Assembly (NCBI GenBank): GCA_017993955.1
Contig: JAGOLR010000002.1
Coordinates: 26-64,025 of the forward strand
From: Candidatus Omnitrophota bacterium
GTDB lineage: Bacteria; Omnitrophota; Gorgyraeia; 2-01-FULL-45-10
Direction: 5' to 3'
DNA: 64,000 nucleotides
A program made the position numbers and the translations under genes. Shown here one piece after another: positions 5,713-53,200 of this stretch. Under the pieces are notes generated by a model that was not told the DNA's origin, made no database searches, and was given only the letters and a program-made list of their open reading frames with translations. Numbering within the stretch: the first letter of the stretch is position 1; each line of letters opens with the position of its first letter.

Positions 5713-5778
5713 TCCATATAAACTGACTTTTTTAACACTCAACAAATATGGTGTTATTGCTAGGAGCTAGCACTTTTT

Positions 5779-5893
5779 CGTCAGGCGACGAAGCAATCTC
5801 TCTTTCGTCATTGCGAGGAATTATCGCTAAACTCATACGACGAAGCAATCTCTTTTTTAGATTGCTTCGGGCACTTCGTGCCCTCGCAATGAC
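5779..5893. repeat. nested-palindromic intergenic repeat element, copy 1 (a half-unit plus a full unit)
   Basis: cgtcaggcgacgaagcaatctctc + cgtcattgcgagga ... cgacgaagcaatct-cttttttt-agattgcttcg-ggcacttcgtgcc-ctcgcaatgac. Outer arms GTCATTGCGAGG/CCTCGCAATGAC; inner arms GACGAAGCAATCT/AGATTGCTTCG; central palindrome GGCAC-TTC-GTGCC. Confidence 0.85.
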
Positions 5894-22923: not shown

Positions 22924-22972
22924 TCTTAAAAATATGACTTTTTTATATCTTAATTCACACCTCGTCATTGCG

Positions 22973-23108
22973 AGGAGCCGGTGCGTTTTTCGCTCTGTGA
23001 TATCTACTTACGTCATTGCGAGGAGCCATCGTTTTTTCGTCAGGCGATATCCCCCCGTCATTGCGAGGAGGCTGACTATCTCGCGTTGGCCGACGAAGCA
23101 ATCTCTCT
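22973..23108. repeat. repeat element cluster, copy 2: three CGTCATTGCGAGGAG half-sites plus one CGACGAAGCAATCTCTC half-site, abutting the stop codon of gene 3
   Basis: cgtcattgcgaggag at 22973, 23021 and 23057; cgacgaagcaatctctc at 23090-23106, 3 nt before the TAA (23110-23112). Confidence 0.8.
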
Positions 23109-32100: not shown

Positions 32101-35100
32101 CCACATAAGAATGGCCGGATGGTCCTTGTAAGCCTCCACTACCCTTCTAACATTATCCATATCGGCCACTACCCCGTATCGGGGAGAATCTACGGCCATG
32201 ATGAGCTTTATGCCCATCCTGTAGAAAGCGTCCAGTATCTCGAAGGCCTCGGGACCGGTCCCAAAATCGTAATAAACTCTCGCGACATTTACGCCCATCC
32301 TCGACATGAGCGAAAGGTCGGCTTTGTACCATTTATAAAATTCCTGGGTTATTGTCGATACGGGCGCGCCCTTGGTGTGAGGCGACCAGTTGACCCCGCG
32401 CGCGACAAATGAATATTCCCCGCCCAGAGTGCCGTCCGGGAGCCTCTCCCGCACGAATAAACGCCTGTCATGCTCTTCTGCGTAAGCCAGGCTCGGAGAC
32501 CTTGGCACCGGCGGCAGCGTCTCGAGCATTATATATCCCGCGAATTGCGATACAAGGCCTGCCCTGTCTTTCGCCTGACACAATATCTCCTTTATACCGT
32601 CACCTTCTGAAAGGGTCATCGCCTTTGAAGTAACGGGTGTCTCCCATGATGTCCAGTTCTCCCCGCCATCCAGAGAGAACCTCAAAGCGCTCAAACCCGA
32701 ACCGGAATCCCGAGCGTTTATATTGACGGTGACACTCCTTGAATCGGTGGTCTCTTCACCGCCGTTTATCGTCAAAACGCCGGTGGGCGGTATCGTATCC
32801 AGGCGTATATCAAAGCTGTATTCTGCCCTCCCGCCCGAGGAATTGGTCTCGACTATAACGCGGGTATTGAGCCCTTCCGAAAGCTGGAAAACAGTCTGTC
32901 TGGGCTCTCCGTCTACCGTATAATCCACAGTAAGCACAGGCGAAGTCGTTATCTCCGGTATCTGGCTCATGATAGCTATGACGGGGTTTATCACGTTAGG
33001 TTTATTACAACCTGTCTGCCCGAGCAGGGCTGGCAAACCCAGGGATGCCAACATAATATTTACAAATGTCCTGCGTGAAGTAAGGCCGCTATCAGAGACG
33101 CTACCGGCTTTACCGATCTCTACAAAAAGTCCGGGCCATATGACTTTCTCTATCGTCCGTCTTACCTTATTCAATATGGCCGCATCTTTAGACGGAGCGT
33201 TTTGAGGCTCCGCGATACCGGCCGCCTCGGCAACCTCATCCAATATGATGACAGTCTTATCTTTAAGCTCTCCCGGGAATCTCGCTTCCAGGGTGGCTTG
33301 CAATCCTTTGTTTACGAATATTATTACGGCAGCCTCTCGCACCTCTTCCAGCGTAGCGGGCCTTGAATCTACTTTCACCGGCTCCTCGCCGAACTCTTGA
33401 CGGAACGCCTCCGCAAGAGGAGCATTTGTAGCCCCCCAACCGAGCTCGCTTTGATCGCCGGCCGCGCCGGAGCTCACCTTCATATATCTAGACAGTTCAT
33501 TTTTATTTATGAGATGGTTAAGGACCATCTGCATGGCGGGACTTCTGTTGTAATTAGAATTACAAACGCATAGTATGGGACCGGCCGGTCTAACCCACTT
33601 GGACTCGGTTTCGGCTACATAGCCCACTCTATCTGTAATACCGTTATTCTCTTCTACAGAAAAAGTATGCTCGTCAATAAAAGCCTTCTCCTCACCGGAT
33701 CCGGCGAGCGCCCAGATGTCAGCCGTTTCGATCTCAGGCGACATGGGCTTTATGCCTTCGGCGACCTCCCACGCGGTATTAGAAAAGGTGGCTTCCTTGG
33801 CTACAAGGTGGCGCATCCTAAGCGACAACTCTATGAGACCGTAACCTTTAGAGGCAGATCTGGACGAACTCGAGGCGTCTGCAATATATTGATAGATAAT
33901 AACCCCGATCAGAACCGCCAGAAAGACGCTAACCCCGAAGATGACATAATGATTAAATGTAAAATTTTTGAGTGCCGCAAATGAAAGATTTAAGATCACC
34001 GGCTGGACGGATTCCGTAAACGGTCCCGCGGCTTGCGCTGAAGCCGAGCCGGCGATAAATACCGCGGTTAAGAACGCGATCATTGGAGCAAGGCCTCGTA
34101 AATTACCCGAACTTCCGGCATCTTTTCTTTCCGCCGGGGCGTTGGCGATGGCTTTGAAGCCTTTCAACGCATCATCAACCATAGGTCTTAGTCTCGGATC
34201 CAGCTTGGCCGCATGCCTAAGATCTCTTTCGCCCTCGTCTTCCATATTAATAGCAAAATATAAAAGTCCCCTGTTATAATATGCGTTTGCAAAGTTAGGA
34301 TCGATCTTTATGGCTTTATTAAAATCATACAGCGCGAGACCTAGTAGGCCTGGCCCTTGCACGTAACTAAAACCACGGTTATTATAAGTAGATGCTTCGA
34401 TCTCATTCTCGGGGCTCAACTCAATAACCTTCGTCAGATCCTGAATAGCCCTAGGATAATCCCTTAATATGTCAAAGTATATACTACCCCTCATCTTGTA
34501 CGCATTAACATAACCTGGGTCTATGCTTATAGCGCGGGAAAAGTCTCGTAATGACTCCGGATACCTGCCCGCCACAAAATAACATGTCCCCCTATTATTG
34601 TAAGCATCGGGATTGTTGGGATTAAATTCTATAATTTTGGTAAAGTTATATATAGCTTTTGGATGATCCAGACCTAAGATGCCGCATGCAGCCACAAGAT
34701 TTTTATAAGCGGTATCGTTCCGGCCATTGAGTTCTAATGACTTGATAAAGTCTGATATCGCTCCAGGCACTCTGCCCAGCGCTAAATGGCATATTCCTCG
34801 TAAATTGTACGCTAGATCAAAATCCGGATTATGTTCTATGGCTTTATTAAGCGCGGTTAAAGCGTCATTATATCTATCTTGCTCGAAAGCCCTTTCTCCC
34901 TGCGTATAATATTTTGTGGCTTCGCTGATCCGGGCCGCGATATCACCTGCGTTCTCTTTGACATCCACATCGCCCGCTCGATGGCTGGGCAATATGCTGA
35001 ATAAACCGGATATTGCAAGAAATATAACCGCTAACCGCATCATAACTTTCATGGCAATCTTCTTTGATCTTGTGGCGCGATCTTCCTGATATACCACCCC

Positions 35101-38100
35101 GGAATTGTCAGCCAAGATATAACTTAATATTCGCCATGTTATGTAAGATGGTACCAATGCGGCAATTACTAATAAAAACGTTCTGGGAGTCACTGAAAAC
35201 CACGAGAAGTTGAATGCTTCTGACCCGCTTTGCGCAAATGCCGAGCCGGAGGCGAGCATGGCGGCGAGGAAGATGCCGAGCGTGCCTGTTATACCCGGGC
35301 TTTTTCCTTGCGGAGATTCGGGTTTCTCCGCAGTAGCCGTTTCCTCTTGGGGAGCATCCTTGATCTCTTCTTCGGCTCCTTCGGCCGGAACCCAATATCC
35401 CGCAGAACTTCCTCCGCCACTATAAGCGTCAAAGTACCCAGAATCGCTGTAGTCAGAATATCCGGTGTCGTTGTTGTTATCTTCGTACGAATTCCGTACT
35501 AGATCTTCATGATGAAGCCAATTTTTCCCACCGGTAATGCCGGCCATTAAGAAAAAGGTGGCGATGACAGGAAGCATCATTAAACAAGCGCTAAGAAAAC
35601 CGGGGAAGATTCCGATTATGTAGCTGAAAACTACCTCGAATCCGCTATGCGAAGTTTGAAGAGACGTGGCGCAGGCGATTGTGAAGTTAATTACCAAAAA
35701 TAATAGCGATGGCAACAATCCCAGACACATAGCAAGATCATTGCGTTCCGAGTCATGCGGCCTGCGTGAATATAGGCCAGCGATTACCCCTGTTATGGCC
35801 GGTACAACAAACATGAAAGTTATAAACGGATGCGATGATATCGCAAAATAAAAAGTTGATAATATTTTAGTTGCGCCGATATTTGTCGCGATACCGTCTG
35901 CCCATGCGCCGCTGGAGGCGAGCATGGCGACGAGGAGTATGTCGAGTTTGCCGGCCGTGCCCGGCCCATTCTTAGTCGTCCCTCGTCCTTCGTCCCTCAT
36001 CCCTCGATCTTCCATACCGTTCTGGGGAACGTCCCCGGCCTTGTTTCGCTTTTGCCCTTTCACTACATTAAGAACGGCGGGGGCATCTGTTATCGTTACA
36101 GTAGTTGAACCATATGAATTACCATAAGCGTCATACTCTTCCTGTTCTTCTTCGTGAGTTTTTGCCGGTACATATTCTACAGTAAAATCATACCCATTCT
36201 TCAAGCATTCCTTAATAACGTCCATCTGAGATGACGTAATATTCGCATCGTTGCCATCAAGAACATTAAGGGTATTCAGAATGCTTTTTACCAAGCCCGG
36301 GTCCGAAACCCTTTTAACGGCTTCCGCTATACGTTCTTTCTCGTACCCAACCCCCCATTGATTATGAACCTTATCGCTTTCTATCCTCTCCAATGCTCCT
36401 ACAACATAATCCGGCATTGTGCTGTCTATAAGCTCCTGCAGATCATGTCCCATAGATACGAGAATAGAAGCGCACACATCGCTTTCAAGAGCTTTAATCG
36501 CAGCGGCGCGAAAACTGGTTCTAAGATGAATGATGCATTTTTCAGTAATGCGTGTACGTAATTCGACTAATAAGCCATCATCGGCTCCAAGTTTTTTTGC
36601 CGCATCTATGATTGGTTTTTCCACATCACTATATAACCCATTAGCAAAGTTACCATGATCTATATACTGCTCCAGTAATGAGATAGCTCGCGGATCGCCG
36701 AAATTACCGAGCTCTACGACTACCTCCTCAGCAACATATCCGGAGGTGTAGTATTTCAACAATACATCCTTATGAAGCTGGAACAATTCTTCCCGCGTGG
36801 CGCCAAGATCTTGATACGCCCTTATCAATGCCCTGTACACAAAACTGCTCCCGGATTCGGCAAGCGGAGACAAAAGTTTCATGACAGACTTATCACCAGA
36901 TTGCCCCAAAACCTCTACTGAAGCTGCTAGTCTATCTCCCTCAACTGAACGCCAATTTTTAACAAGCCTAAGCGCCTGAGGATGGGATATTTTTTCGCCT
37001 GACCTTGGCATCCCGATATCTTTACGTGCAGTTTTATTCGCAAGTCCGGGTTTTTCGCCAGAAGATGCCTCCGATACAGGCTTTTCCATTCGAGAAACTT
37101 CTCCTACGCTTCTTTTAAAAGCGTTTCCCATAACGATATTTAACAAAGAAAGTCCCGCCAGAGGTAGCCAGAAGCCCGAACAGTAAGAAAAATATTCGGT
37201 CGCGAGAACTGTTAGGAATAGATATGCGGTCAGGCCCAAAAACTTATGATCTCTGAAATAGGAGACGGCTTTAAGCATTACCCTGGAAAGAGTCGGACGG
37301 TAATTATCTAGATATCCATACGCAAAGCTCGCTACGATTACCCCGAAGCTGACCGGATGAAAAGGCGCCATTAAAAATACAACTGCCGGGACGCCAACTT
37401 TGGCAGGATTTATATCGCGCTTAAATACCTTCTTTGCTATGAGCCATATAATGGCGCTCGCCAAAAAGACTATGGCTGTAACGATTATGCCATCTATGAA
37501 AAGCTGTCCTAAACTTAAAAGTGGCGCACCGTAAGGTGTGACCTGTATCGGGAGCGTGCCGGTAGGACCTGCCGGAAGAGGCATATGCCCTCCCATGGAA
37601 GGACCTCCGAAATACGACGGTTGCGCAGCTGCCAATCCGGACGCGAGCATGGCGGCGAGGCCGCCTAACAGGAAAGGAATAAAAGAATGCGCCCGCAAGG
37701 ATGGTGTGGACCGGCGACCTCTGGTCTCGAGCCATTTTTTGAGTGCTTCTATCTCTGAGAGACGCCATCTCTTCTTAGCCTCAACCTTAGCTGCGTCGCC
37801 TTTTATCTCTTCCCATCTGGCGAATTGGGCATCTACAAAAAGGTCCTCGCCTAAAACCCTGTAGTTATCTAAAGGCGGCAACGTACGCCTGAATATATCC
37901 ACGCCTGAAATAGGAATCGCTCCCGAATATGCGGTAAGTTTTCTCCTTATGACCTGGGCCATCGGTAGTTTCTCGCCCCTCGCCGCCTTTTTCAGTGTTT
38001 CAAGCCCCACCACTTCGTAATTGGCCTCAAGCCCCGGAGCGATCTCTTTGGCGGTTACCTTAAGCTTGGATGATGCAATGCGGGTGAACTCCTTTTCCCC

Positions 38101-41100
38101 ATCCACGACTACTACTATATCTATATCGTTAGGGCTATCGGACCATGCGTAACTACCCATCAGATATATAGAAACCAGGGGCTTATCCGCGGAAATCATC
38201 CCATTCTCGTATAGGGTAGCGACGACGGCCGGGATCTTGGATCGGATAATTTGTATTTTTGAAACGGCCTTATCGGTCTTATCTTTGCTGTCGGCAATAC
38301 TATGCCACATCCAGCTCCTGGTCTTAAGGATATCGGCAATGGACCTGATGCTCCGTATTACCATTCCTTCGCGCGACAGGTCTAAAGTCCCCGCGTCCAG
38401 TTCCCAAGGAGCTACATCCGGTGCGTATTCGGGAGCGAGCCTTCCCGTACGTATGGCTTCGGCCACACGGTCATGCACTGCCTCAGGCAGCGAAGACGCT
38501 CCGCCCAACCTGAGCACAAGCTGCGCAGGTTTATCAAGCACAGTATTGCTATACTGCATTGGGCTACCGTACACATCATAATATTCCTCTTCCTCCTCAT
38601 GTGTACTGGGCGGGATATATTCGGCCCTGACAGCCTGGGCCGCCTCTATGAAAGATGTTACGAGCTCTATTTGCTGCAAGGTCATAACCGCATAATCGTC
38701 ACTATAACCGTATGTGCGCGAACCTTCCTTGACATGCGAAAGATACGGGACCATAGAAGCAAGGAGCGGGTTGCTTATGGCAATAAGAGACCCGGCACTC
38801 GCAGACCTGACCCTGCTATCGGTGTCGCCCACCCCACTTAACAATGGTATGACCGAACGCTCATCTTTTATCTTTCCTAAAGACGCCGCGGCGGCGGCGC
38901 GGTCTAACCGGGAGGATTTATCGGCCAATATGGCTATAAGCGGCTCCGCAGCGCGGATGTCGCCGGATTCGCCTAGCGCCGTTACGGCTGCGTTGGCTAC
39001 ACCTTTATCGGGGTCGGTAAGCGCGTCATTGATAAGCTCAAACGCGGATCGATCCTTTATCGCGCCTAAAGTCTGCACAGCTGATTTACGTGTATTGGCA
39101 TCCTCATCAGAGAGTAGAGTCTTTAATGCCGGTATAGCCGGTGCCCCCACTTCACCCAGCTTATTCCAGTCACCGGTAGCGACCGCATACGCTATCTCTT
39201 CACCTTTATTTACGGGTTTCCATTCCAATTTTTTCAGCGAATCCGCCGCTATCCTGCGGTTAACGGTATCCGAATCTGACAGGGCTACTACTAGGGCAGG
39301 GGCGGCTTTCTTGTCCCCTATGGCGCCTAATGCCTCTGCAGTTTTACCGCGGACCGCCTTTGACGGGTCCTGGATTAAAGGCTCTAACGCCTTAACTGCT
39401 GTGGAAGCTTTTACCCTGCCGAGTATGGTCGCCGCGCCGGCGCGTATATGCTCATCCGCGTTCTTCAAAGCGGCAATAAGGAGCGTCTCCCTGCGAGGAT
39501 CCTGAATATTGATTATCGCGGTGACAACCGTCTGATGTAATTCAACCTCTGCCAATAAACCGATAAGGCTTTCCAGGGCGCGCGGATCCTTTATCTTCCC
39601 AAGCGCCTCCGCGGCCGATTTCCTTACGCCCTCTGCCGGATCTTTCAGTAATCCTACGAGGGGGATAACAGCCCGCGAATCGCCTATCTCGCCCAGCGAC
39701 CATGCCGCGAGCTGCCTCTTATACTCGTTCTGCGCCGCAAAACATTTTATGAGGTCCTGGACAGCCGGCACATCTATATTGGCCAGAGCTTCGGCAGAAG
39801 CCCGCCTTATCGCGTGTTCCCGGGAATCAAGATTCGATATCAATGCGGCAATAGCCCTCACTTCTTTGATCTTACCTAAAACACGCGAAGATGAAACTAC
39901 AACCTCTTTATTCCGGCTTGAGAGCCCGGCCAATAAACGCGGGGTAGCGCGCGTTCCGAGTAATACAAGCGCCTCTTCCGCCCTCGCAGGAACTCCGTAT
40001 TCATAACTCCCAAGCCGCCACATATGCCAGCGCACAGGGAAAAATAAACGCCATATGATAAAGAACGCGGCGGTACCCAGCGCCAACCCTGCCATCGACG
40101 CGACAACCACGAATCCCAAAGGATGCGCTGCAAAAAGCTCATGGATGATTGATGATAATGTCTTTGTGCCAAAATTTGATGTGCTTTCGCCTGCAAACGC
40201 CGAAGCTGAGGCGAGCATGGCGGCGGTCGTGGCGATAAGAAGAACAGGAAGTTTCGTCGTTCGCGATTTGCCATCGACTTCTTCAGCAAATCGTCCCGAG
40301 CGAAGCGAGGGATCTTGTTCGTAGTTCGTATTTCGGATAATATTAGAAGTATCCTCAAAAAGCCGGTCGATTCCGGAATCTATAGTTCTAATTTCATCGA
40401 TCGCTTTCTCCATATCGCCTTCCCCACCCTGCATTATCCGAGTAAGGTTTTCGACGGCCGTTTTCCGCGCTCCATCTAATCTATCCAGTTCGGTTCCGTC
40501 TATCAAGGCAGGCATATTCTCATACGTTCTATCAAGCAGCGGGACCTGATCAATAACCGCTTCAGCAGGCACTGTGGTATTCGGTGGATAGGTGTCTAGT
40601 CCTGTTTTTTCCGAGTTGGGGACCGCAGAGCCTTCGCCTTTTTTAAGAAACGGCTTAACATTAATAGATAAAACTGACTGTACAAGCCAGTCGCTTCGGT
40701 AAGGATATGACGCATACTCTTTCCTGTCCGGATCCCAAACATAGATCACGGCGCGGCGCCCATCTACGGTCGCAATAAGACTGCCATCGCCGATAGGATA
40801 CGAATTCTGGAGCCAGTCAACTACATAATTATCTCCGTTGACAAACGGCAATCCCGAGAAATCATATATCTTCGCCACTTTATAATCTTTATCCAGGAGA
40901 ATTACGCGGCCGTTCTGGCTATCGGACAGGATATATCCTCCGTTATAATAGATCGCCCCATGCGGTTTATTAAGGTCTTTCAATACAATGCGCGTCCGAC
41001 CCGTAGCCTTCTCTATCTCGATAAGCTGGCCCGGATCAAAAAGAGTGGCCATTATAGTATTCCCATCACGGCCGTAATCGGCCCAGTTCGGACCTGCGCC

Positions 41101-42948
41101 ATAGAAAGCTCTTTCCAGGCCGACCGGCGAATCGACCTTACTTATATCTATGACAACACGGTAGTCCTGCCCGGGCTTTAGATCTTCTCTGACCTTATTC
41201 TCAAATCTCCTAATATATTCTTCCCTTGATAGCACTGTAGTATCCGAAAAACCCGCGATAGGCCGGTCTTTTTCGGTAAGCGTCATGCCGAATTTATTCT
41301 TGCCATACCCGTTCTCCCATGCCAGCCATTCGTAAACTACATTTCCTGATACGATATCTACTTCGAGAATACGGTCCAAGCCGGTGCTAGCAACCAATAT
41401 TAATCCTGGATCGGCAGGATGAAACTTAACCGTGTGTAACAGTTTAAATTCCGGGTTCCTGATGCGTTTTTTAATCTCTTTTGTAGATGTATCGATAATG
41501 ATTATCTCTTCCGAAAAGACTACGGCTATGACGTCATCGCGTACGGCGATATCCCTCGGCTCAACGCCGGATATCTCCCATAGACTTCTGGAGGTCTCCG
41601 CGATATCGTTTACAGTCATAATAAATAAAGAGGTGGGCTCGCTTATCGGCCTTGCTGGCTCGTAAAGCTTACCCGTATCTTTATGTATCCCGATCCTTCT
41701 TGCCTTAAGTTCCGGCGAATTAACGCCTTTCACGACAAAAGCTACCGGAATATTACCGCCAAGGCCACTGACTTCCTTAAAGTCATCGGCAATGCGGACC
41801 ACGGTAGGCTGCGCGGTGGATACGCTGTCGTCCGTTTTTATCTGAGAAAATGAACGCGACGCCATAAGCGGTAGCCCCAAGAATAAGAAAGCCAAAAGAC
41901 CACCTATACCTGCCCCTAAAAATACGCTTATAACTAAGGTCATCACAAATTTGACCGACCACATATCTATACCGGTTACCCCCTCAGCAAATGCCGGCAA
42001 GGCCACGAGCATCATAATTAAAGAGGAAGCGATTATCTTCCGAATACTTATAGTCTTTTCTGGAGCTAATTGGTGGCTTACTTGGGCTATGGGTTCGGAG
42101 ATTGTGACTTGCTTATCGTCTGTTAGATTGCTTCGTCGTTCCGCCTCCGGCGGAACTCCTCGCAATGACGGACTAGACGTCTCGCGTCTTACGTCTAACG
42201 TCTCACCTCTTACGTCTTGCGTCTTGCGATCTTCAACAGTCGTCTCTCTCGATTTGCCATCGGCTTCTTCAGCAAACCGTCCCGAGTGAAGCGAGGGATC
42301 TCCTTCATCCCCCATCTCTCGTTCTTCCACAGACGTCTCACGTCTTACGTCTAACGTCTCACGTTCTTCCACGGACCCCGCCACAGACGTCTTACGTCTT
42401 GCGTCTTGCGTCTCACGTTCGTCATAATCCTCCGGCAGGACCTTCACTGCGTACTTGTCCCCGATCACCCAGTCGTATCCTGCAAGCTCCCTTATAGCGA
42501 GATTATCTTTCTCGGAGATATATATGAGAGACTTCTTGCCATCCGGCGGGTTGTAAAGCATGGTGATAACGCCGTCTTTAAACCTTACATGGGAAAGGTC
42601 GATGCCGTATAGCGCCCTGTATGTCTTAAGGCGCCTAAAAAGAGCTCCTTCGATATGCTGTTCCGGGAGCTGCCCTATCTTGTGAAGATCGTCGCCCATC
42701 AGGTATTTGGCGATGTCGTATATAGCTACTACAAGCCCCCTCTCCGCGAGCACCGATGCCTGAAGTTCAGCGGCGAATTCGTTGACCGGCTGAGTCTGGC
42801 CTACCGATGGAAGCGCCAAGGTCGAGGCGGAAGGCTGGCGCGGCGTGCCGTCTTCCGGATGCGCCCAACTGATATCAAGAGAGAGAAAAGCGGCGATGAG
42901 AATGATGGAGATGACTTTAATAGCGAAGTGGGAACGGAAATTGATCAT
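23110..42948 (-). CDS. giant (6612 aa) signal-peptide-bearing modular protein; enzyme and scaffold modules separated by TM hairpins with internal signal-peptide-like segments: beta-propeller-like region, HEAT, nucleotidyltransferase-like, TPR, LMW-PTP-like, Ig-like plus clan GH-A glycosidase, ILEI/PANDER-like, ribulose-phosphate 3-epimerase, CofD/YvcK, class III FBPase-like metallophosphatase, 2H phosphoesterase
   Basis: Uninterrupted 19.8-kb ORF from ATG 42948-42946, with AAGGGGG SD 6 nt upstream, to TAA 23112-23110. N-terminus [31 protein letters not shown]. Domain coordinates were checked by back-translating [10 protein letters not shown] at 29413-29442. Confidence 0.9.
   Translation of the reverse strand: [6612 protein letters not shown]
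24304..24741 (-). other. 2H phosphoesterase (LigT-like) domain
   Basis: Two HxT/Sx motifs about 130 aa apart: SEHITLSDL and KAHVTLGYL. Confidence 0.45.
27049..27576 (-). other. metallophosphoesterase of the class III fructose-1,6-bisphosphatase (Bacillus Fbp-like) type
   Basis: [49 protein letters not shown] compared with Fbp [45 protein letters not shown] (GDxxDRG ... GNHD/GDHD ... LWxGA). Confidence 0.55.
27934..28866 (-). other. CofD/YvcK (UPF0052, LPPG:FO 2-phospho-L-lactate transferase / gluconeogenesis-factor family) domain
   Basis: [14 protein letters not shown] (compare vvlGGGtGlsxLLrGL); [15 protein letters not shown] (compare vtvaDDGGSsGrLRr); [26 protein letters not shown] (compare iiGPGSlyTSilPnLlvpgi.eAl). 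Confidence 0.65.
29239..29931 (-). other. ribulose-phosphate 3-epimerase domain
   Basis: DLHIMD (compare DVHLMV); [28 protein letters not shown] (compare VLVMSVNPGFGGQKFIPSxLxKIRxLR); [30 protein letters not shown] (compare IEVDGGIN...AGANxxVAGSAIF). Confidence 0.8.
31114..31356 (-). other. ILEI/PANDER (FAM3)-like GG domain
   Basis: [67 protein letters not shown] matches the GRGINV...FDTY...SIPDG.IVL.AV.DE pattern of the ILEI domain. Confidence 0.4.
31459..32826 (-). other. Ig-like (Big-type) domain followed by a clan GH-A (GH5/GH2-like) glycoside hydrolase TIM barrel
   Basis: Ig-like: [58 protein letters not shown]. GH-A: acid/base [10 protein letters not shown] (NE) and nucleophile IFISEFG (xSEFG). 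Confidence 0.5.
33229..33591 (-). other. low-molecular-weight protein-tyrosine-phosphatase / ArsC-like module (CX5R P-loop)
   Basis: [19 protein letters not shown] compared with the LMW-PTP signature V-C-L-G-N-I-C-R-S-P-M-A-E (C-X5-R-S-P). Confidence 0.4.
34174..34926 (-). other. TPR repeat array
   Basis: Repeated 34-aa units with AY.N.G......G....A..D..KA....P consensus ([14 protein letters not shown]..., [14 protein letters not shown]..., [14 protein letters not shown]...). Confidence 0.75.
38749..39861 (-). other. HEAT repeats (PBS-lyase type)
   Basis: Repeated AxALGxIGDxRAxxPLIxLLxDxxxxVRxxAAxAL units, e.g. [44 protein letters not shown]. Confidence 0.7.
42125..42171. repeat. copy of the intergenic palindromic repeat element embedded in frame in the coding sequence of gene 3 (encodes [17 protein letters not shown], aa 259-275)
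   Basis: agattgcttcg-tcg-ttccgcctccggcggaa-ctcctcgcaatgacgg: the same arms as the intergenic copies, with central palindrome TTCCGCC-TCC-GGCGGAA. Confidence 0.8.
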
Positions 42949-43015: not shown

Positions 43016-43104
43016 CTTCGTCATTGCGAGGAGCTATTGCTAGACTCAGGCGACGAAGCAATCTATTTTTTAGATTGCTTCGGCCCTTCGGGCCTCGCAA
43101 TGAC
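43016..43104. repeat. nested-palindromic repeat element, copy 3 (full unit)
   Basis: cgtcattgcgaggag-ctattgctagactcagg-cgacgaagcaatct-attttttt-agattgcttcg-gcccttcgggc-ctcgcaatgac. Confidence 0.85.
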
Positions 43105-43134
43105 AAATAAGAAATCGTATTACTCAATAACAAT

Positions 43135-43428
43135 TCAGAGTATAGTATTGTAAAGATCTTTGAAGTCCGGATTCGACTTCTTAATCAATGCTAACTTATC
43201 GGCCCGTGAACCGCCCTTTATTTTCTTCTCCCGCTCTATAGCATCTTTAATGCTATCAAATATCTCATAATGAATAAGCTTCGTAATGTTGTATTTCTTG
43301 GTGAAGCCTTCTACTGATTTTTCCTTATGTTCGTAAACACGTTTTACCAAATCACTCGTTACCCCTGCATAGATAGCTCTGTTCGTTTTATTGGTCATCA
43401 GATATACATATCCGCGCTTATCTTGCAC
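43135..43428 (-). CDS. GIY-YIG nuclease superfamily protein (small URI-domain endonuclease, COG2827-like), 97 aa
   Basis: MQDKRGYVYLMTNKTNRAIYAGVTSDLVKRVYEHKEK...KLIHYEIF...AIEREKKIKGGSRADKLALI shows the GIY/YIG, R, E and hYxE signature blocks typical of the family. GTG start at 43428-43426 (an internal ATG at residue 11 is an alternative); TGA stop at 43137-43135. Confidence 0.85.
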   Translation of the reverse strand: MQDKRGYVYLMTNKTNRAIYAGVTSDLVKRVYEHKEKSVEGFTKKYNITKLIHYEIFDSIKDAIEREKKIKGGSRADKLALIKKSNPDFKDLYNTIL

Positions 43429-43444
43429 TTTAATTCTTTCTTTT

Positions 43445-43489
43445 AGATTGCTTCGTCCTTCTCACTTCGCTCGAAGTCCTCGCAATGAC
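43445..43489. repeat. partial repeat element, copy 4 (right half), 17 nt upstream of the GIY-YIG start
   Basis: agattgcttcg-tccttctcacttcgctcgaagtc-ctcgcaatgac; the central cttcgctcgaag is itself palindromic. Confidence 0.75.
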
Positions 43490-43568
43490 AGGCTGAATTT
43501 TGTCATTTGTCATTGTTAACCCCGCTTTGCGCATTACGTTTTACGCTTCCGCTAGTCTTTATAAATCT

Positions 43569-43613
43569 ATAAACAAAACCGCCAGACCGATTTTCGAGCC
43601 ATTCAGTCTGGCG
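43569..43613 (-). terminator. rho-independent terminator downstream of gene 4 (minus strand)
   Basis: Minus-strand CCGCCAGAC-(17-nt loop)-GTCTGGCGG followed by TTTTGTTTAT. An adjacent second hairpin GAGTAG-n12-CTACTC followed by TGACGTTTT on the plus strand suggests a bidirectional terminator. Confidence 0.5.
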
Positions 43614-43760
43614 GAGTAGATACAATTTTTGCTACTCTGACGTTTTAGCTTACACCTATGCATATTAGTTTCATTTTTTATCAAATTCTACTATATAATT
43701 TATCACAGCTACTGCTTTAAATCAATGCAAGTCCTTCTGTCTTTTTTCTCCCTAACCTGT

Positions 43761-43849
43761 TGTCATTACGAGGAGCTATCGCCAAACTCAGGCGACGAAG
43801 CAATCTCTTTTTTTAGATTGCTTCGGGCACTTCGTGCCCTCGCAATGAC
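43761..43849. repeat. nested-palindromic repeat element, copy 5 (full unit)
   Basis: tgtcattacgaggag-ctatcgccaaactcagg-cgacgaagcaatct-cttttttt-agattgcttcg-ggcacttcgtgcc-ctcgcaatgac. Confidence 0.85.
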
Positions 43850-44150
43850 GCAGATGCGATTCTTTCGAACCTCTCACTTTACGCTTTTCGCTTTATCCCA
43901 CCGCGACATCCAGAAGAATGGGGCGGGATTCCACCTCGCCCTTAAAAGATTGTGATAGCGGAAAAAGCCCGTCCTCGCTCCTAAGGGAGCCGCTTGGCAG
44001 AGCCCCCAAAGAAGCGAAGACGGATACCCTCGCTTACGCTTTACAATGGCGGAAGCGGGGTGGGGTAATATCGTCGTTCATAGATCGTAGTTCGTTAAAG
44101 AACGGATAATTTCATTAATTGTCTATCGTTAAAGAACAGCTAATACCGTC

Positions 44151-44270
44151 CGTCATTGCGAGGAACCATCTTTTTATTTCATGTGACGAAGCAATCTCTT
44201 TTTTTAGATTGCTTCGGGCACTTCGTGCCCTCGCAATGACGAAAGAATAATTTCGTGCCCTCGCAATGAC
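44151..44270. repeat. nested-palindromic repeat element, copy 6 (full unit with a duplicated right arm), ending 13 nt from the stop of gene 4
   Basis: cgtcattgcgaggaa...gtgacgaagcaatct-cttttttt-agattgcttcg-ggcacttcgtgcc-ctcgcaatgac-gaaagaataattt-cgtgccctcgcaatgac. Confidence 0.85.
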
Positions 44271-44282
44271 AAATAACGATGA

Positions 44283-47200
44283 TTACGCCGCGGACGATAT
44301 GAGCTCGATCATCGTCTTATACGCTTCGTAGTCGCCGGTTATATCTCTGGGTTCAGCGGGCGGCAGATAGATGAATCTGTTACCTTCTATCTTAAGCCCC
44401 GGTATGCCGAACTCTTCCGCGCTCGATGCTCCGGGCTTACTGACTATAGCCAAGAGCACTTGATATGTATTCATCGTAAGGAGCACTTCTGTCCCGTCCC
44501 TGTCCCTCATCCTTACCGGCTGACCGTCTTTTTTGTAAGCCTGCACCTCGAGGAACTTACTGTCGCCCGAAGGCATGCCGATCTCGTTCGCGGCGGCCCT
44601 TATCCCTATATTGGCTATAGCTGCCTTTGTCTCATCGGCCGCGAGGGCAACTATATCCTGATATGTGCGGCCTCTCTTATCTATGAAGACTATATCGGAG
44701 ACGTCTCCGTAACCCGACGCCCTCACAAAGGCCTTCGCCCTTTCAAGCGAGGCGATCTTATCGCCGTATATGAATACGTTCTTCACGCCAAGGTCCTTCG
44801 CCTTCTTCATATTATCGGCAAAGAACGGATCCTGCTCCGCCACCTTCTCTGTCGTAGCGATAACGGAGCCTTGAGCCACTACCTTCGGCATAGCCATGCC
44901 GTTATATGTAGAGCGTATTACGCTCTTACGCTCTTCCATCTGAATCTTGGCCCTCATAATTATAGGCGACACTTTGGCGGCTATGATAGACCCGTATTCG
45001 GGACCCATCTGATCTCTGTAGGCCTGGTCAAGATTATACCTGTCGATATCCTCAAGGGTATATTTTAACTCCGCCAATATATTCTGCAATTCCTCCAGGG
45101 TAGTATTGCTCACCAATATCTCACCGGCGTCAATGCTTATATTGTCTATGAGATCTTTCATATCAGTGCTCTCGTCTTCGAACAAGCTCTTGTCTATAAA
45201 TACGCCATTGCACCCGTCTTCCGCTATCGTTTTATTAAAGCCCTCCACCCCTTCTGTAAATACCGTAATGGTAGCCATGCCACTTCTTAGATATTGGCCG
45301 AAAATAGGATTATCCTTCATGGCTTCCTCTACGACTATCCTATCCCCTCCCCTGGATACGCCTATAACGAACTTCCCGCCTTTAAGCCGTGCAACCTCGG
45401 TAACTCCGGCTTCCGGCTTGCGCGGTAATTTTATGGAGGTGATCTGCCCATAACGGCCGAGGCTCGCGAGATAGGTATTTAAGTTTGGTATTGCAGTATC
45501 ATAAGGAGTATCAACTATGACTCCTTTTTTGGCCTTTCTCGCATGCATGACCTTCGAAAGCGCATCAACGCTATTCTCCTGTATGTCGCAGAAGCCTATA
45601 TCTAGGCCCGGATGGCCGCTTGTGATTATAGCCTTTAGGTCCTCTATCTCCTCATCTGTCATCACACCCGTAGGTATACCTACCAAGACATCCTGGTTCA
45701 TCACCCTGTTCTGAAAATTGACCACTGCGTTATAATTCAAAAGAGCTCTCATATACGCGCCTATAAGAACCTCGTAGCTTTCTACCTCTATCGGAACCTC
45801 CGGTCTCAGTATCGGCAGAGCGACCTGAGCGGCTCGTAGTGAATGCGGGACATTGTCGGCTGTTTCGGATACGCTGTCGATTATCGACAGGGCGCGCTCT
45901 CTGGTAAGACCGAAATCTCTCATCAGGTCTCCGACACTTAATGACGGGAAATCGTTTACCGCAAGGACATCGGGACTCCTGGCCTGCCCTACGAAGAACC
46001 GCACCTTTATGGGCCTGCCTTCTTCGGCCGTCTTCTTCTCTATGATGAACTTCGCCGTAAAGAGGAAAGATCCGTCGGCCAACTCATCCACAAGACACAG
46101 CTCGTCGCCCGATCTCAATCCGTCGAGCACTCCGGCGTTCTTAGCCTGCTCATAGATAGCATCCAATACATTGGCGGTAGTCCCGCCCTTTGCGTATTCC
46201 CCGGCAAGATACTCCATCATAAGGCGTTCGAGGTTTTCATAGTTTTTCGGTATATTTTCGTAATCCGGATTGTCGGGATCTTCCAATAGCCCGGCCAAGC
46301 GGTTGATCTGCATATTTATCTTGCCCTTGAAAGATTCGCTCACCGTATCTCTGGATATGAAGAACATATAACCGTTCACATCCCTGTTATTCAACTGGCG
46401 GGTCAGGTAGAAAGACTGGAATACGCTGCCCGCACCCCTGGCTATGAACAGATACCTGTCGGTGCTCTCTTTATCGAAATACGGCACGAAGTAGGAATTG
46501 CCCTCGGCGAGTGTCTGGGCGCCGTTATATGAACAACGCGCCTCCCGCCTACGGCCGGGATAAGATTCGACTTTGATGGCCCATGCATCTCCGTATCTTT
46601 CCGGATCCCTTACTATATTAAGAAGACCGGGATACTGCTCGGTGCCGTCACCGTAGAAATATCTTGAGAAATCGTTGTATTCCGCGGAATATTTGACCAT
46701 GCCGTTCATATAGGCCCTGGCCTTTTCCTGAAGTTTTCTCAATATCTCTTCCTTTGTAAATTCCCTGTACTTGCCATCAGGGCCCATCTTCAGATCGGCC
46801 GTGCTGAGCCCGACCCAGAAGTTGGTCAGATTCGCTATATCCATGGCAAATGTTATTCTTATGGCCTTCAACTCGTCATTTATCCTGACTGGCTCGGCGA
46901 CAGCCCTGTCACCTTCCATATTGAGCGCCTGGGATATCCTGTTAAGTATCTGCAGCATTTTCAGGCGTATCTCATAAGGACAATCATCTACCACATCGAG
47001 CATAAGCCTGTAAGATGGCTTCAATTTTGCCGCCAGCCTGAAATATGCGTTCCTGGTCTTTTCCACGTCGTTATCGATGATAAGGCCTGGGTGGGTCCCT
47101 CTAAGTTCGGCGAGTTCCGAATCGACCGCTTCCCATATTATACCGGTTATACTCTTCTTCATAACCGGTGATTGAAGCGCCGGGGGCGGGAGGGTCATGC

Positions 47201-50200
47201 CTATAATGTCTCTTTGGAGCGCGTCGATATCCTCCTGGCTTAAAGGTTTGCCGTCTTTATTGATCTCATATATTATGACGCTGACCCCGTTAAAGATGGT
47301 ATGATTCGGGGTATATACTATGCTTGCGCCGTTACGCCTTATTACTTCCCCAAGACTGGCTATCAGGCCCGTCCTTTCTTCCGATACCAGCATAACGTCT
47401 GTTCGTTCCACTTCTGGCGGGTTTGATATCTTTATGCTTGGGATGCCGGTCTTCTTTACTTCTTTATAAGAATCCACTACTTCGGTAAGCTGCTTTGTGA
47501 ATCTCTCCGGCTGGTCATTGACGATATTCCTGTGGCCTATAGGCATGGAGTTGACCACCGTATTCAGGAATAGCGATATGTCTTCGTCTCCATCCGACAA
47601 TGTATCTATAGCTTTCCCTATCTTCATGTAAGTAACTATGTGCTTGATGCCTCCCCATACAGAGGTGATAGCTACGTCGGTGGGGATTCCGTTTATAACG
47701 CAGACGGCGAATATCACGATAGGCGACAAGATAAGAAATGCCGGTATTATCCACATACCGGTAGGAACGAGGCTTCCCAGCATGACAGATGCCGGCACGA
47801 TCGAGACGAAGGCGTAACGATCCGATCTCATGGAAGAAGGTAATATTATTTCTGACGCGTATGAGTAGAGGGCGGCAAGCGAAGTCAGGGCGAGAGTAAA
47901 TACCATGGTAGCGTTGGCAAATATCTCGTGGATCTGGCCGATCAGGTCGGATCTACCGGGTTCTATGCCAAGTTTTGTATGCAGGAACCAGTGCGCATTC
48001 TCGTGCGCGGATATTAGAGATTTGGTAAAGCCGGAAAGCGATTCGTATTCCCTGGACACCAGAGGGTCTATCTCCACATTATTGGTGGCTGGGTTGTATC
48101 TTACCGGAGGCGCCCTCTCGCCTGGAGTCACGGCTTCCAATCTCGATTGTTTAGAGGCGAGGACATCTTCCAGATTCCGTATAGCGCGATAAGTAACGAA
48201 TAAGAATACAGGCGATGCCAGTAATGCATAACCAGCCAGAACTAGAAGTAGCGGTGACCCCGAGAGATAAGCGCCGCCCATACCCATAAGCCCCGCGGCG
48301 CTTGTCAGCCCGGCAGTCTTTAGTTGACCCTTGGAGGTTATGGCGGCTCTTCTTGCATACCGGATAAGGCCGAGATAGTCATCCCTATCCTGCGCCATAG
48401 CCACTTTGTGAGCATCGTCGAAATTTGCGTATGTCTTGAAGTCGTGTATTATGGCACCGGTACCGTCATATATGGGGACAGGATTACCATGGAGATCGAT
48501 AGTCGAATTAGGCAGAATGCCTTCTCTTATCAGGATATCATTTCTTCTGAGGGCTGCGTAGGCTTTCATCCCCTTTAACCATGTAAGGTCTCCCGTAGGT
48601 ATCTCGGGCGCTACCATACCTGGTATATCCCTATCCTGCGACAAAGGCAACGTCATCTCTTCTGATATAAGAGCATCCAGGGTATCTTTTATGTCGTAAT
48701 ACCCGTATAACCTGTTATAAGGCACTCCCCTTCTGCCGCCTGTGGCCTGCTCTTCCTTTTTACTAAGCCTCTCTATCACGGCCTTCAGCACAGGGTGCTT
48801 TGCGGCAAGGCCTTCCCATAACGTAAGATGCTTCTTATCGCGGCTCAATGCAAGTCCGCCCTTTGTCTTGGTGGGATTGGCCATCATCTCAAATAATGCG
48901 TTTATACCTTCTCTCTGCCGCAGATTAAGATAAGAACCGAACATCTGGACATCCAGCGCTCCCGCAGGATGCAGCAATATAAGATCGTTTATCCTGTGTA
49001 TGCAACCTGTACGGCCGCCTCTCGAATATATATATTTCATAGCCGGAAGCTCCAGTCCAACCTTTTCCGCGACAGGCTGGCCGGCCGGACCTTCGGTTAC
49101 CTTAAGCGTATAGGCATTTGGCCCCTTTATCCAGAAGAGTTCGGCAAACGCGAAACCGTGATTCCATGTAACTTTCTGTTTGTCCGGATTCTCTGTGGGG
49201 ACGAGCTCTCCCTTGTCGTTGAACTCGTATGCGACCCCATATCCGCCATCGACGAATACCACATTCTCAGGGTTGAGCCCGAAGAAAGGCCTGCCGGAGA
49301 GCTTGCTTGGCGACATGAACATTTCGTGTATCTGGGAGGCGATATCATCCGATAGATTAACGACAAGCTTCAGGTTGGCGAATATCTTATTTACGTCGTC
49401 ATCCGATAGATTATGGGTCCTCGCCAGATTGAATATCCCTTGCTCAAGCGCCAGCATCGCTCTCTCGCCTACATTTATCCTCTGAGCATAGGGTGGTATC
49501 TCAGATATAAGACCGGTCCTTAAAGCTATATCCCATATATCTATATTGGCTATCCTGGATTCGTCGGGGCTTATCTCGAAATCTTTTTCGTTTATAGGCA
49601 CCCCCGCCGCCTCGAGAGCATCCCTTCTTTCTTTGAGAGCCTTCTTAAGCGAGTCATACATGCGGCTTGCCTGGCCGGCAAAAGGCATCTGGAGGCATAA
49701 CTCGCCGGATAAAAGCGCGTCTATGGCCTTTCCGTTATCCTGGAAGTCTTCCACTATGGCAAGCGGGGCAACGTCGATCTCTTTCTCCATAGTAAGGGTC
49801 TCTCGCGAATTCAGCTCGTCTATGATAGCATCTACGTTTTGTCTGGATGACCTATCGCTGAACATATCGCCTCTTCGGGACCCGACAAAACTATTTATCC
49901 TCTTACCCATCACTTCCGGCCTATAGCTATATTCCAGATATTTCTCCTGCGCCGCGCGGACACGCATATCTATCTCATCCTGCCCTACTCCGGACGGGAT
50001 AGACGCTTCAATCGCAAGCTTTATAAGAGTGGGGACGAAGAGCCTGTTATTCTCGGATAGCAGGTCTTCATGCAGGAATATTGTGTTTGTGCGTTCGTTG
50101 AAAGTACCCGCAGCCTCTTTTAACTTGGCGCGCAGGCCGTAATTATTGCTCAATAGCGCGAATGGAGGCGCCCTTATAGACTGCGTGCTCAATAATTGAT

Positions 50201-53200
50201 CGAGCACATCCCTGGCGCTGGGCTCATCTATATCGCCGAGGATGTCTATCACAGGCTCTACCACATAACGATTGACTGGCTTTGCCATATCAGGCGTAAG
50301 ATCCTCTAATCTCGATATCTTACCCAGATCCGATTCGAACCTTATGGAGAACTCCATGGCCAAATCTCTTACTTCGTCTTCTTCAAGGACTTCGCCGTTA
50401 CGCGTGACCTCCAGTATGGTTATATTTATATCCCCGAAACGCGTAGATATGGAAGACTGTACTCCCAGCATCTTATCCTCAAGTATCCTGCCCACATCGC
50501 CTATTATGCTCGGTCTTTCCGGAGTTATCTTGGATACAAGCATGATATCGGTGTGGCCTACCGGGACCATCACAGGCCCGCCGGCTGCGTCTTTTACGGT
50601 AACGGTAGGATTTAATACCTTCGAACTCACTCCTTCGCTAGACTTGGTCTTTTTATAAAGATCCAATATATCGTTAAGCTGTTCTCGGAAACGCGCCCTT
50701 TCGGTTACCGATAAGCCTTTCTGGCCGGCTATTTCATGACGCCGGACTATATTCTTATGAGTCTGAGGCATGGCGTGCACTACCGCGTTAAGAAGATTGC
50801 GGGCCTCATCTTTAGATATATCATTTTCACCGGATACTATATAACGTATCTCACTCTTTATTATCCTGTCCGCTGCCGCAATACGGTACGTCTTCCAGAG
50901 AGTGTAAGGCACTATAAATACCGGAGCGATGATCATAGCTATCGCGGCTATTATAGGCGACAGCGCCATAACCGTATTCGCGGCTATCTCGTGCAGATAA
51001 GAATGGTCGCTGTAATTGATCCCTAAGACGGCATGTAAGAACCAGTGCGTGTTCTCATGGACCCATATCATTATCCTGGTGAAACGGGCCATCTTATTGT
51101 ATTCATCTATAAGCATAGGATTTATGTCGACACGGCCGTTCAAAGGATTATAACTGATAGGCAGCTTATCTTTTTCTCCCGCGTCGGCCAGCGTCTGCTC
51201 GAACCTCTTTATCTTAGGATACGTAATAAGGAGGAATGCCGTAGATACTGTCACGCCGTAGTATACACAGAGAAATAGCGGAATACTCGATGATGCTCTA
51301 AGAGATATATAAATACCTACGTAAGCTGACAAAGCCAAAACTGCTATGCCTGTCCAGAATTGCCCTCTGGAAGTTATGGGAGCGGGGCTTTCGACTACGA
51401 ACAAGCCCGGGTCTTGCAGTTTAACACTGGCCGATATCTCACCTCTGTCGATCAGCATGGTAACTATATTGTAAACGGCAAAACGCGCATCTTTATTGCT
51501 AGCCGAAATTACTGGCGTATTATTATCGTCTCTTAGAAGCGTGTGGCCCATTATCTGCGATATGTCGAATTCTGTCCCGGGCTTAAAGTTACCCACTATC
51601 TCTTTTATGATAGGATACAGACCCGCGATCTTATGTAGTTTGGCATCACGTGCCCTTTCGGCCTTAAGATTGGTCTCCTGCTGCCAGGCGTCGAAATTCT
51701 TTCCGGTATCGGCTATTTTCCTGTGCTCAAGATCGTTGACTTTTGTCCCGTCTGGAAGCGCTTTCTCATCCTTTACATTGCCTCTTAGACGATATATGTC
51801 GTCTACTTGTTGCCCTGCTTGATCAATCAAGGATACGTGCGTATAAGCCTCGTCAAAATTGAGCACCCTATTCGGGAAATACCCCACAAGAAGCCCTTCG
51901 CCGCCTTCGAATGAACCGGCATATTTGAATTCGCTCGATTCTACGTAGTAATCTTCTCCGAAGGCCAAAACCTCTCCCTTATCCAGCTCTATGACTGTAT
52001 TAGATAGTATAGTATGCTTACCTATTCTGACAACTCCTTTACCTATGATATTAGTCCTGTATATGAAGAGATCGGCGCCGTTATTTTTAAGTTGCTTTAA
52101 ACGGTTATTCATAAACCGCAGTACCTTGTCCCTGTCTGCCAGATCGCGCGGGTTTGTCATGCCGGGAAGAGCCACAACTCTCCCATCCTTATACATGACT
52201 TCAAGGGTCGTCCTGGGATCTATATAAGACTCCATGACATTCTCGTCTACAGGCGTCAAACCGGCATTCTTTCTATTTTCCGGATCGAAGGCCCTCTTCT
52301 GCGCGGTCTCCAGATAAGTCCATGGATATCCGGCGTCGTTCCATATATAACCCTCACCCAGATTCACTACATATATAGGATATTTAGCGACGTAAGATGA
52401 GGCCAGGTCGTATACTCTCTGGAGGTCCTCGTCTGAAGCTATCTTCTTCCACGTGGCTGGTATCTTGGTCCTGTCTACCTTGCCTGTATCGTCCACGGGT
52501 CTTCTCATCATGGCCTGGCCCAGGGTGTCGAATAAACCGAACCCGTAAGCCTCAAGAAGAGTCAACTTCCTCTTACCGTCCGGGCTATCTACAGCGCTTG
52601 GAACGTTGAATAGATCCTCCAGGTCATCAAGGGCCCCGTTCTCTCCGTCCTTACCTTCTTCCCTGGCCGTAAAGGCAAGTTGGAATGTGTTTATTAGCAA
52701 GGTACCGTCTGTTTTAAGGGCCGTGTCGATTATTTCTTCTATTTTGCCTTTTTCCAGGAAGTCGATGAGACGGCCGGTTTGGGGGTCGGCCGCGAGTATG
52801 CCGAGTTGGGTAAGATTCGCGTCATCTATGCGTTCAAGGATGGGACCAAAATTGGCGGACTCGAATAACGCCCTTATTTTGCTTTCGTCTGCGCCTTGCG
52901 CCCTCAGGTTCCTGGCGTCTTCTACTATCTCGCGGAGATTGTCGGCGCGCGACATGTCATCTTTACCCAGGACCAGCGCCGGCGCACCGAAGAATAATGC
53001 CTTGGCATCGGCTGGTATAGCGGAAATGTGCTTACCTCCTACTGTCATGTAGGATGGCGCTATGTCGTTGTCACTGCCACCCATAGTCTTCCAATTCTTG
53101 CCCCTGCCCGGTAACTGTGCAAGGATCGCAAGCTGGGCCTCGAACTGCATCTCCATGAAAGATTTATTCAATACCCTGAGGCGCCCCTGGAATATCTTAA

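Follow-up and report, generated by a model that had tools for sequence, protein, structure and literature searches.

We examined a 64-kb window of DNA from an uncultured Omnitrophota bacterium (contig JAGOLR010000002.1; the window is the whole stretch that was analysed), in which a 97-amino-acid (aa) open reading frame (ORF), referred to here as ssn, lies among giant genes and short palindromic repeats. Three complete giant ORFs are found in the window, all on the minus strand (giant genes 2, 3 and 4 at 5952-22859, 23110-42948 and 44283-63974) and all multidomain (5,635-6,612 aa), and a putative fourth (giant gene 1) apparently lies to the left of ~5.7 kb and runs off the window edge. The spacer between giant genes 3 and 4 is 1.33 kb long and holds a single ORF, that of ssn. 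Beyond the three giant ORFs, the sole ORF of at least 250 aa (38714-39505, plus strand, 263 aa) overlaps giant gene 3 on the opposite strand, and the description of ssn as the only small gene in 64 kb, given in the original prediction of this locus, was essentially right.

The GIY-YIG signature that had been read from the 97-aa ORF was confirmed by Pfam, which matched PF01541 over residues 6-76 (E=1.4e-16; 61 bits vs a cutoff of 22.6) and no other family. We found that public calls of this gene (P0001/P0002; NCBI, ENA) start at Met11 and give 87 aa, cutting off the GIY motif (43399-43428). The closest database entry, a 100% identical 'GIY-YIG nuclease family protein' from a Candidatus Omnitrophica metagenome-assembled genome (MAG), is annotated as 87 aa, and a 99% identical relative is likewise annotated as 87 aa from Met11. 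The GTG at 43428 is the better start, because the 97-aa version is colinear with all homologues and retains the GIY motif; it aligned end to end with 26 homologues of 94-110 aa, across which Y9, Y20, R30, H34 and E67 are invariant. The 97-aa reading thus corrects a truncated public gene call that lacks the catalytic GIY motif. An AlphaFold2 (AF2) model of the protein displayed a compact minimal GIY-YIG fold (predicted local distance difference test, pLDDT, 92; predicted template modelling score, pTM, 0.82). A database search returned 2,742 homologous matches, the top ones 60-78% identical and found in Omnitrophota, Elusimicrobia, Thermodesulfovibrio, lineages of the candidate phyla radiation (CPR) and a Nanoarchaeota-labelled MAG. 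The ssn ORF has a GC content of 37.8% (42.9% at third codon positions, GC3) against 48-50% (GC3 52-55%) in the giant genes, where every 294-nucleotide (nt) segment has a higher GC than ssn, consistent with acquisition of the gene from elsewhere.

Ssn proteins are single-domain GIY-YIG proteins of ~94 aa (CDD cd10448, GIY-YIG_unchar_3) that bind a hairpin repeat, called NTS in Neisseria (CGTCATTCCCGCGMAVGCGGGAATCYRG) and 'SRM' generally, only as single-stranded DNA (ssDNA) (Chenal et al., Nat Commun 2025, PMC11893778). They cut a few nt 5' of the repeat and leave double-stranded DNA (dsDNA), RNA and the reverse strand uncut; cutting is governed by the three nt before the palindrome and binding by the C right after it (PMC11893778). 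An SRM lies near 71% of Ssn homologues and on both sides of 42%, residues Y6, Y17 and E64 of SsnA have been tested by mutation, and the enzyme makes N. meningitidis less transformable by DNA that carries NTS (PMC11893778). Using tblastn, the window protein matched one place in each of two N. gonorrhoeae chromosomes (E=5e-20 and 1e-19), both below the published threshold for Ssn homology (tblastn E<1e-10; PMC11893778), the comparison here being with the gonococcal orthologue and not with the meningococcal protein. The gonococcal match is a 94-aa ORF (L090:1525-1809) that lies amid NTS repeats and has exactly the Y6, Y17 and E64 reported for SsnA. Its identity to the window protein is 44% over 90 aa (E=4e-32), and Y9, Y20 and E67 of the window protein align to the three mutated catalytic residues. 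Like the Ssn proteins, the window protein is a single GIY-YIG domain with no accessory domain, and its gene is bracketed by hairpin repeats of the cognate type, 17 nt upstream and 30 nt downstream, that are also repeated elsewhere in the window. As a side observation, PLSDB files the two 2.17-Mb gonococcal chromosomes (NZ_CP119140.1, our L090, and NZ_CP119142.1) as plasmids, almost unannotated.

We found that the repeat unit in the window, GTC-ATTGC-GAGG-[variable segment]-CGAA-GCAAT-C, is a half-element of 32-47 nt; its orientation is given by the GTC that precedes and the C that follows the palindrome in every intact copy. The core 12-mer CCTCGCAATGAC, allowing at most one mismatch, occurs 14 times in the window vs 0.30 expected (0 of 100 shuffles reach 14), and 13 of the 14 hits fall in the three inter-giant-gene spacers. 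A generic hairpin of the form GTC-X5-N-rcX5-C was unspecific in the window (28 hits vs 26 in shuffles), with only the ATTGC class enriched, and the window statistics therefore rest on the 12-mer. In total there are ~17 full or partial copies, in both orientations, and every spacer between giant genes is occupied (Table 1). The layout around ssn agrees with what had been described for it: the half copy upstream of the start codon is exactly placed and lies on the gene strand, the 'full copy' at 43016-43104 is present and consists of two half-elements in inverted orientation, and upstream lie the three further copies, one of them partial, together with a terminator-like hairpin.

Table 1. Coordinates of ssn, the SRM-type repeats and the terminator-like hairpin in the 64-kb window.
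Feature	Position	Strand	Description and basis
ssn gene	43135..43428	-	Ssn-family (probable) single-domain GIY-YIG nuclease, 97 aa, GTG start; ORF, Pfam, SsnA homology, AF2 fold
SRM hairpin upstream of ssn	43446..43489	-	gene orientation, ends 17 nt upstream of the start codon (GTCATTGCGAGG-N22-CGAAGCAATC); sequence reading, repeat scan
SRM hairpin downstream of ssn	43073..43104	-	inner stem short and G+C; lies past the stop codon, gene orientation; folds at -8.1 kcal/mol, z=-2.5 (outer stem of 5 bp, then a GA/GAA internal loop, then the inner hairpin)
SRM hairpin, inverted	43020..43063	+	long inner segment; forms composite copy 1 with 43073-43104
Composite copy 2	43762..43849		SRM 43762-43805(+) (ATTAC, one stem mismatch), T-run, SRM 43816-43849(-)
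Composite copy 3	44152..44240		SRM 44152-44196(+), T-run, SRM 44207-44240(-)
Partial SRM	44252..44270	-	5' half only; repeat scan
Composite copy 4	5807..5893		spacer of giant genes 1/2; SRM 5807-5850(+), SRM 5860-5893(-)
Degenerate SRM	~5753-5800		directly upstream of composite copy 4
Three tandem SRMs	22964..23103	+	same orientation, spacer of giant genes 2/3; first two 3'-degenerate, 23057-23103 intact
SRM within giant gene 3	42126..42169	-	intact, within the coding sequence, in frame as SLRGVPPEAERRSNL; folds at -11.1 kcal/mol, z=-2.2
Terminator-like hairpin	43567..43614	-	putative; arms 43579-43590 and 43603-43614, then TTTTGTTT on the minus strand; between giant gene 4 and ssn

Scanning species-representative genomes gave at least 590 relatives, from which 80 loci of many phyla were kept; the counts that follow are over 84 gene copies, scoring hairpins within 150 nt of the gene, with shuffled flanks as control. 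An SRM was found on either side in 78 of the 84, whereas 2% of shuffled upstream flanks contained a hairpin, and the association of nuclease and repeat that had been suspected from the window alone is therefore real and general. Most of the six negative loci show slightly imperfect copies by eye. The hairpins are oriented relative to the gene: a strictly defined forward SRM on the gene strand lies upstream in 57 copies (opposite orientation, 23) and a reverse SRM downstream in 58 (opposite orientation, 22), with both together in 43/84. Across phyla, nucleotide similarity between loci is 67-77% and never extends more than ~60 nt beyond the gene; where longer matches occurred, they were within Nostoc or Anabaena or were artefacts that premature stops had caused. 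Two Anabaena species share a module that is 90% identical over 426 nt; it begins 8 nt before the gene and ends 124 nt after it, and no similarity is detectable farther out. The Nostoc loci are stably syntenic, and outside single genera no conserved synteny was found. Five of the 84 homologues (L031, L035, L058, L080 and the second copy of L077) carry premature stops with coding similarity kept downstream, as decaying copies. Since hairpins lie near most copies and similarity ends near the gene, the conserved unit is hairpin-gene-hairpin, which across these phyla appears to be a compact, horizontally spread module (SRM-ssn-SRM).

The same arrangement recurs in quite different surroundings. Both in a polysaccharide locus of Thermodesulfovibrio and in an integrative element beside a serine recombinase, a forward hairpin stands just upstream of the ssn start and a reverse hairpin overlaps the stop codon. 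The polysaccharide cluster of Thermodesulfovibrio hydrogeniphilus is rich in the same hairpins and also contains, two genes from ssn, a gene for a PF05635 23S rRNA intervening-sequence protein (L001 4951-5352). The integrative-element homologue (P0070; L003-L008) has hairpins of an ATCCT/AGGAT type and lies between genes for a D5-like primase-helicase and a large serine recombinase, an arrangement seen on 19 contigs.

The repeats of the window and of most related loci follow a form of their own, 5'-(Y)GTC-ATTGC-GA(G)-[hypervariable inner hairpin, 10-55 nt]-(C)GAA-GCAAT-C-3'. Among 88 gene-flanking ATTGC-type elements, bases that had not been used for selection are conserved on the 5' side (G9 in 88/88, A10 in 87/88, G11 in 72/88) as well as on the 3' side (C in 71, G in 86, A in 67 and then A or G in 67 and 21), while the inner segments, of 10-55 nt, comprise 79 distinct sequences. 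The 5' flank of these elements is variable save for a pyrimidine at -1, as in NTS, where it is variable beyond -1. The published SRM pattern, HGTCWYN(0-2)YYVSBRHN(0-5)WNVSBRGN(0-2)RNCYNB, matches no SRM in the window, its sole hit there (3666) being unrelated, and it detects an SRM in 1 of the 84 related gene copies, against 71 of 84 with an ATTGCGA/GAAGCAATC type; the same implementation finds nine NTS in 3.3 kb of gonococcal DNA (L090). As the published pattern is a search pattern and not a definition of the family, the missing match marks a variant class of repeat and not an exclusion from the family. The ATTGCGAG-type repeat is thus a distinct and very widespread hairpin class that escapes the published pattern. 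Window repeats and NTS have CGTCATT...AATC(Y) in common, including the essential GTC and the 3' C. The NTS has a continuous ATTCCCGC stem; in the window repeats the outer stem (ATTGC/GCAAT) has 5 bp and is separated from a hypervariable inner hairpin by a conserved GA(G)/(C)GAA internal loop, and these repeats differ further in having been propagated as an inverted pair of ~86 nt. Literature searches returned only unrelated primers for the repeat sequence, nothing for GIY-YIG with repetitive extragenic palindromic (REP) elements and nothing relevant for COG2827.

When folded as ssDNA, the copies with a short G+C inner stem formed the predicted structure (z ~ -2.2 to -2.7). Composite copy 1 folded as one 93-nt hairpin (-29.2 kcal/mol, z=-8.5). 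A composite consists of a forward long-loop SRM, a T-run and a reverse short-loop SRM; the four copies align over the whole ~86 nt and are alike even in the otherwise hypervariable inner parts. Their termini are 12-nt perfect inverted repeats (GTCATTGCGAGG/CCTCGCAATGAC), and similarity ends exactly there. With four copies of this kind, the composite resembles a miniature inverted-repeat transposable element (MITE). A covariation test anchored on the unpaired bases gave 10 perfect non-ATTGC stems vs 0.5 expected, half of them of one type (ACTGC/GCAGT) that probably comes mostly from one locus; this support is modest, and the SRM structure is therefore not rested on covariation.

One intact SRM lies inside the coding sequence of giant gene 3, in a low-complexity stretch rich in acidic residues and Arg, ~260 codons from the start of the gene. 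That start is backed by an N-terminal, signal-peptide-like segment common to giant genes 2 and 3. In-frame insertions of palindromic elements are known from Rickettsia, and the intragenic SRM resembles them; the N-termini of the giant-gene paralogues share ~24% identity, which is too low to prove an insertion.

Taken together, these results make it very probable that the ORF at 43135-43428 encodes an Ssn-family ssDNA endonuclease and that the surrounding palindromes are its cognate SRMs. A system of this kind is already known (Ssn, described in 2025), and the new content is modest, consisting of a repeat variant, its composite form and a new host. The window locus is like that of SsnA in having a ~95-aa single-domain GIY-YIG protein that keeps the catalytic Tyr/Tyr/Glu and has 44% identity with the gonococcal orthologue, and in having oriented hairpin repeats that bracket the gene, are scattered intergenically and bracket large genes; it differs in its host, an uncultured Omnitrophota bacterium with giant genes. 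That the nuclease acts on the palindromic elements, as had been proposed, is backed for its homologues by published biochemistry (PMC11893778), from which, by analogy, we infer ssDNA cleavage by the window protein, its cut position and its cellular role. The region would become single-stranded, for example during replication, during DNA uptake or conjugation, or in recombination intermediates, and the strand with the forward motif could then fold into the SRM hairpin. The protein would bind this hairpin, depending for binding on the C that directly follows the stem and for cutting on the GTC that precedes it, and would hydrolyse the strand a few nt 5' of the motif, sparing dsDNA, RNA and the complementary strand. 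With SRMs in both orientations in every giant-gene spacer, single-stranded copies of the region would be cut into gene-sized pieces; in Neisseria, cutting of this kind restricts how far incoming SRM-bearing DNA recombines.

Several points weigh against this interpretation. The published biochemistry concerns members with another hairpin class than the ATTGCGAG type, and none of the window elements is matched by the published SRM pattern. The outer stem of the window repeats is only 5 bp long and is broken by the GA/GAA internal loop, and the long-loop halves on their own fold unconvincingly (z -1.2 to +1.2). The two halves of a composite can pair into a long, duplex-like hairpin, which judging by the published data should not be a substrate. 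The probable family placement comes from pairwise homology, and the proposed mechanism would presuppose natural competence or another single-stranded phase in this host.

We also considered readings in which the nuclease and the repeats have other origins. The gene could encode a housekeeping repair nuclease, like UPF0213/YhbQ or Slx1, that sits in a repeat-rich spacer, with the repeats being unrelated REP-like transcript or terminator elements of the giant genes. The minimal GIY-YIG fold of UPF0213 (YhbQ/BH0048) and Slx1 is of about the same size, the best PDB structural matches of the AF2 model are UPF0213 BH0048 (1ZG2), Slx1 and UvrC-N, and the composites have a plus-strand T-run after the forward SRM. 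Yet these T-runs lie on the strand opposite the giant genes, no Rfam family was matched, and phmmer against all PDB sequences, 1ZG2 included, gave nothing at E<=0.01. UPF0213 and Slx1 have not been reported with cognate flanking repeats, and Slx1 depends on Slx4 and has branched duplex DNA as its substrate. Placement in a UPF0213-like clade with conserved synteny, which the original prediction had named as a sign against a link of nuclease and repeats, was not found either, as there is no UPF0213 sequence match and synteny is confined to single genera; an accompaniment of the gene by repeats in 78/84 loci across phyla is not expected of host-specific transcript elements. We therefore regard a housekeeping role as very unlikely. 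A conventional free-standing GIY-YIG homing endonuclease (phage Seg or I-TevI type), making dsDNA breaks and spreading by homing, would share with ssn the catalytic motif and an association with selfish spread, and the compositionally foreign gene gave weak matches to two models (TIGR01453, E=1.4e-4; phrog_314, E=2.8e-6). The TIGR01453 match reaches 22 bits vs a cutoff of 56 and covers residues 6-44, that is, the catalytic motif alone. Homing endonucleases have a separate DNA-binding domain, cut dsDNA and reside in phages or introns, none of which applies to ssn: the protein has 97 aa and no DNA-binding domain, a collection of 50,697 phage records contained no homologue, and close homologues have been shown not to cut dsDNA. 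The earlier label of a classic homing nuclease was thus not supported, and we give this reading almost no credence.

A further reading adds to the Ssn assignment and does not exclude it. SRM-ssn-SRM might be an autonomous mobile element resembling an insertion sequence (IS), whose nuclease also spreads single SRMs and the ~86-nt composite, as REP-associated tyrosine transposases (RAYTs) are thought to do for REPs and bacterial interspersed mosaic elements (BIMEs), with ssn as a selfish insertion; we think this possible but doubtful. In its favour, cross-phylum similarity is confined to the gene and the 60 nt to either side of it, with unrelated flanks and contexts, and the Anabaena pair shares its 426-nt module and nothing detectable beyond. 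The orientation bias of the hairpins (57 vs 23 upstream, 58 vs 22 downstream) is like that of terminal inverted repeats, and the four composites have perfect terminal inverted repeats at which similarity stops. The SRM inside a coding sequence, the GC of ssn, lower than in any giant-gene segment of equal length, and the decaying copies among its homologues point the same way, and the IS-like NTS-ssnA-NTS layout was remarked on by the Ssn authors themselves, whose comparison with REPs and RAYTs is an untested hypothesis in their Discussion (PMC11893778). Against it stands the layout around the gene, which varies (forward-gene-forward-reverse here, other orders elsewhere), as well as the stable synteny of the Nostoc loci. 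No target-site duplication was identified and no pair of filled and empty sites was found; in the one strain that is nearly identical (L089, 99.65% identity) the SRMs are laid out alike. The chemistry of GIY-YIG enzymes is hydrolytic, and they are not known to form covalent intermediates or rejoin strands, so any movement would need host repair or recombination. The comparative data agree with a discrete module without demonstrating transposition; RAYT-like mobilisation, raised in the original prediction, is the analogy that the Ssn authors also draw.

The likeness to REP/BIME elements and RAYTs lies in short oriented hairpins, often in inverted pairs and dispersed intergenically, and in a nuclease gene specific for ssDNA hairpins that is itself bracketed by inverted repeats. 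RAYTs differ in being HUH Y1 enzymes (IS200/IS605-like) with a covalent tyrosine intermediate, whereas the enzyme here is a hydrolytic GIY-YIG protein of unrelated fold; the sole Pfam match of the window protein is GIY-YIG, and membership among HUH Y1 transposases was not found. We tentatively suggest, while holding it to be rather less than probable, that the ATTGCGAG-type SRM and an Ssn subclade together make up a hairpin-bounded mobile module that spreads inside genomes and from one to another across more than ten phyla, with the ~86-nt pair as its MITE-like, non-autonomous derivative that lands even in coding sequence. If true, a hydrolytic GIY-YIG ssDNA nuclease, together with host repair, would for the first time be seen to drive a system of the REP/RAYT kind. 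Whether Ssn enzymes propagate their own repeats becomes a more concrete question with a locus in which repeats bracket every giant gene, an 86-nt pair has been copied and one copy lies in frame.

Returning to the Ssn assignment, the window adds Omnitrophota to the range of the Ssn/SRM system, and the 84 related loci widen this range to CPR lineages, Planctomycetota, Dehalococcoidia and Cyanobacteria, among others. As the ATTGCGAG-type class is largely invisible to the published SRM search, the reach of Ssn in uncultured lineages has probably been underestimated. For enzyme engineering, this provides a candidate for a new specificity of ssDNA recognition, in which loop lengths of 10-55 nt are tolerated.

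Other features of the window were recorded alongside. Searching the whole window against Rfam at gathering thresholds matched no family, and a structured RNA was rejected, as permissive E-values gave only a chance match to NrrF; a hammerhead-like core in the repeats (GA...GAA around the inner stem) was likewise rejected, since there is no CUGANGA box and the corresponding positions covary as a stem. None of the PADLOC defence models matched. The terminator-like hairpin (43579-43614) was not picked up by a simple terminator scan, probably because its loop is 12 nt long. In the same spacer, a 34-nt tandem duplication (44077-44144, 76% identity) lies directly upstream of composite copy 3. Within their first 3,300 aa, giant gene 2 encodes starch-synthase-like and GT1 glycosyltransferase domains and GHMP kinase domains, giant gene 3 encodes HEAT and TPR repeats with a weak match to low-molecular-weight phosphatase, and giant gene 4 is almost without Pfam matches.

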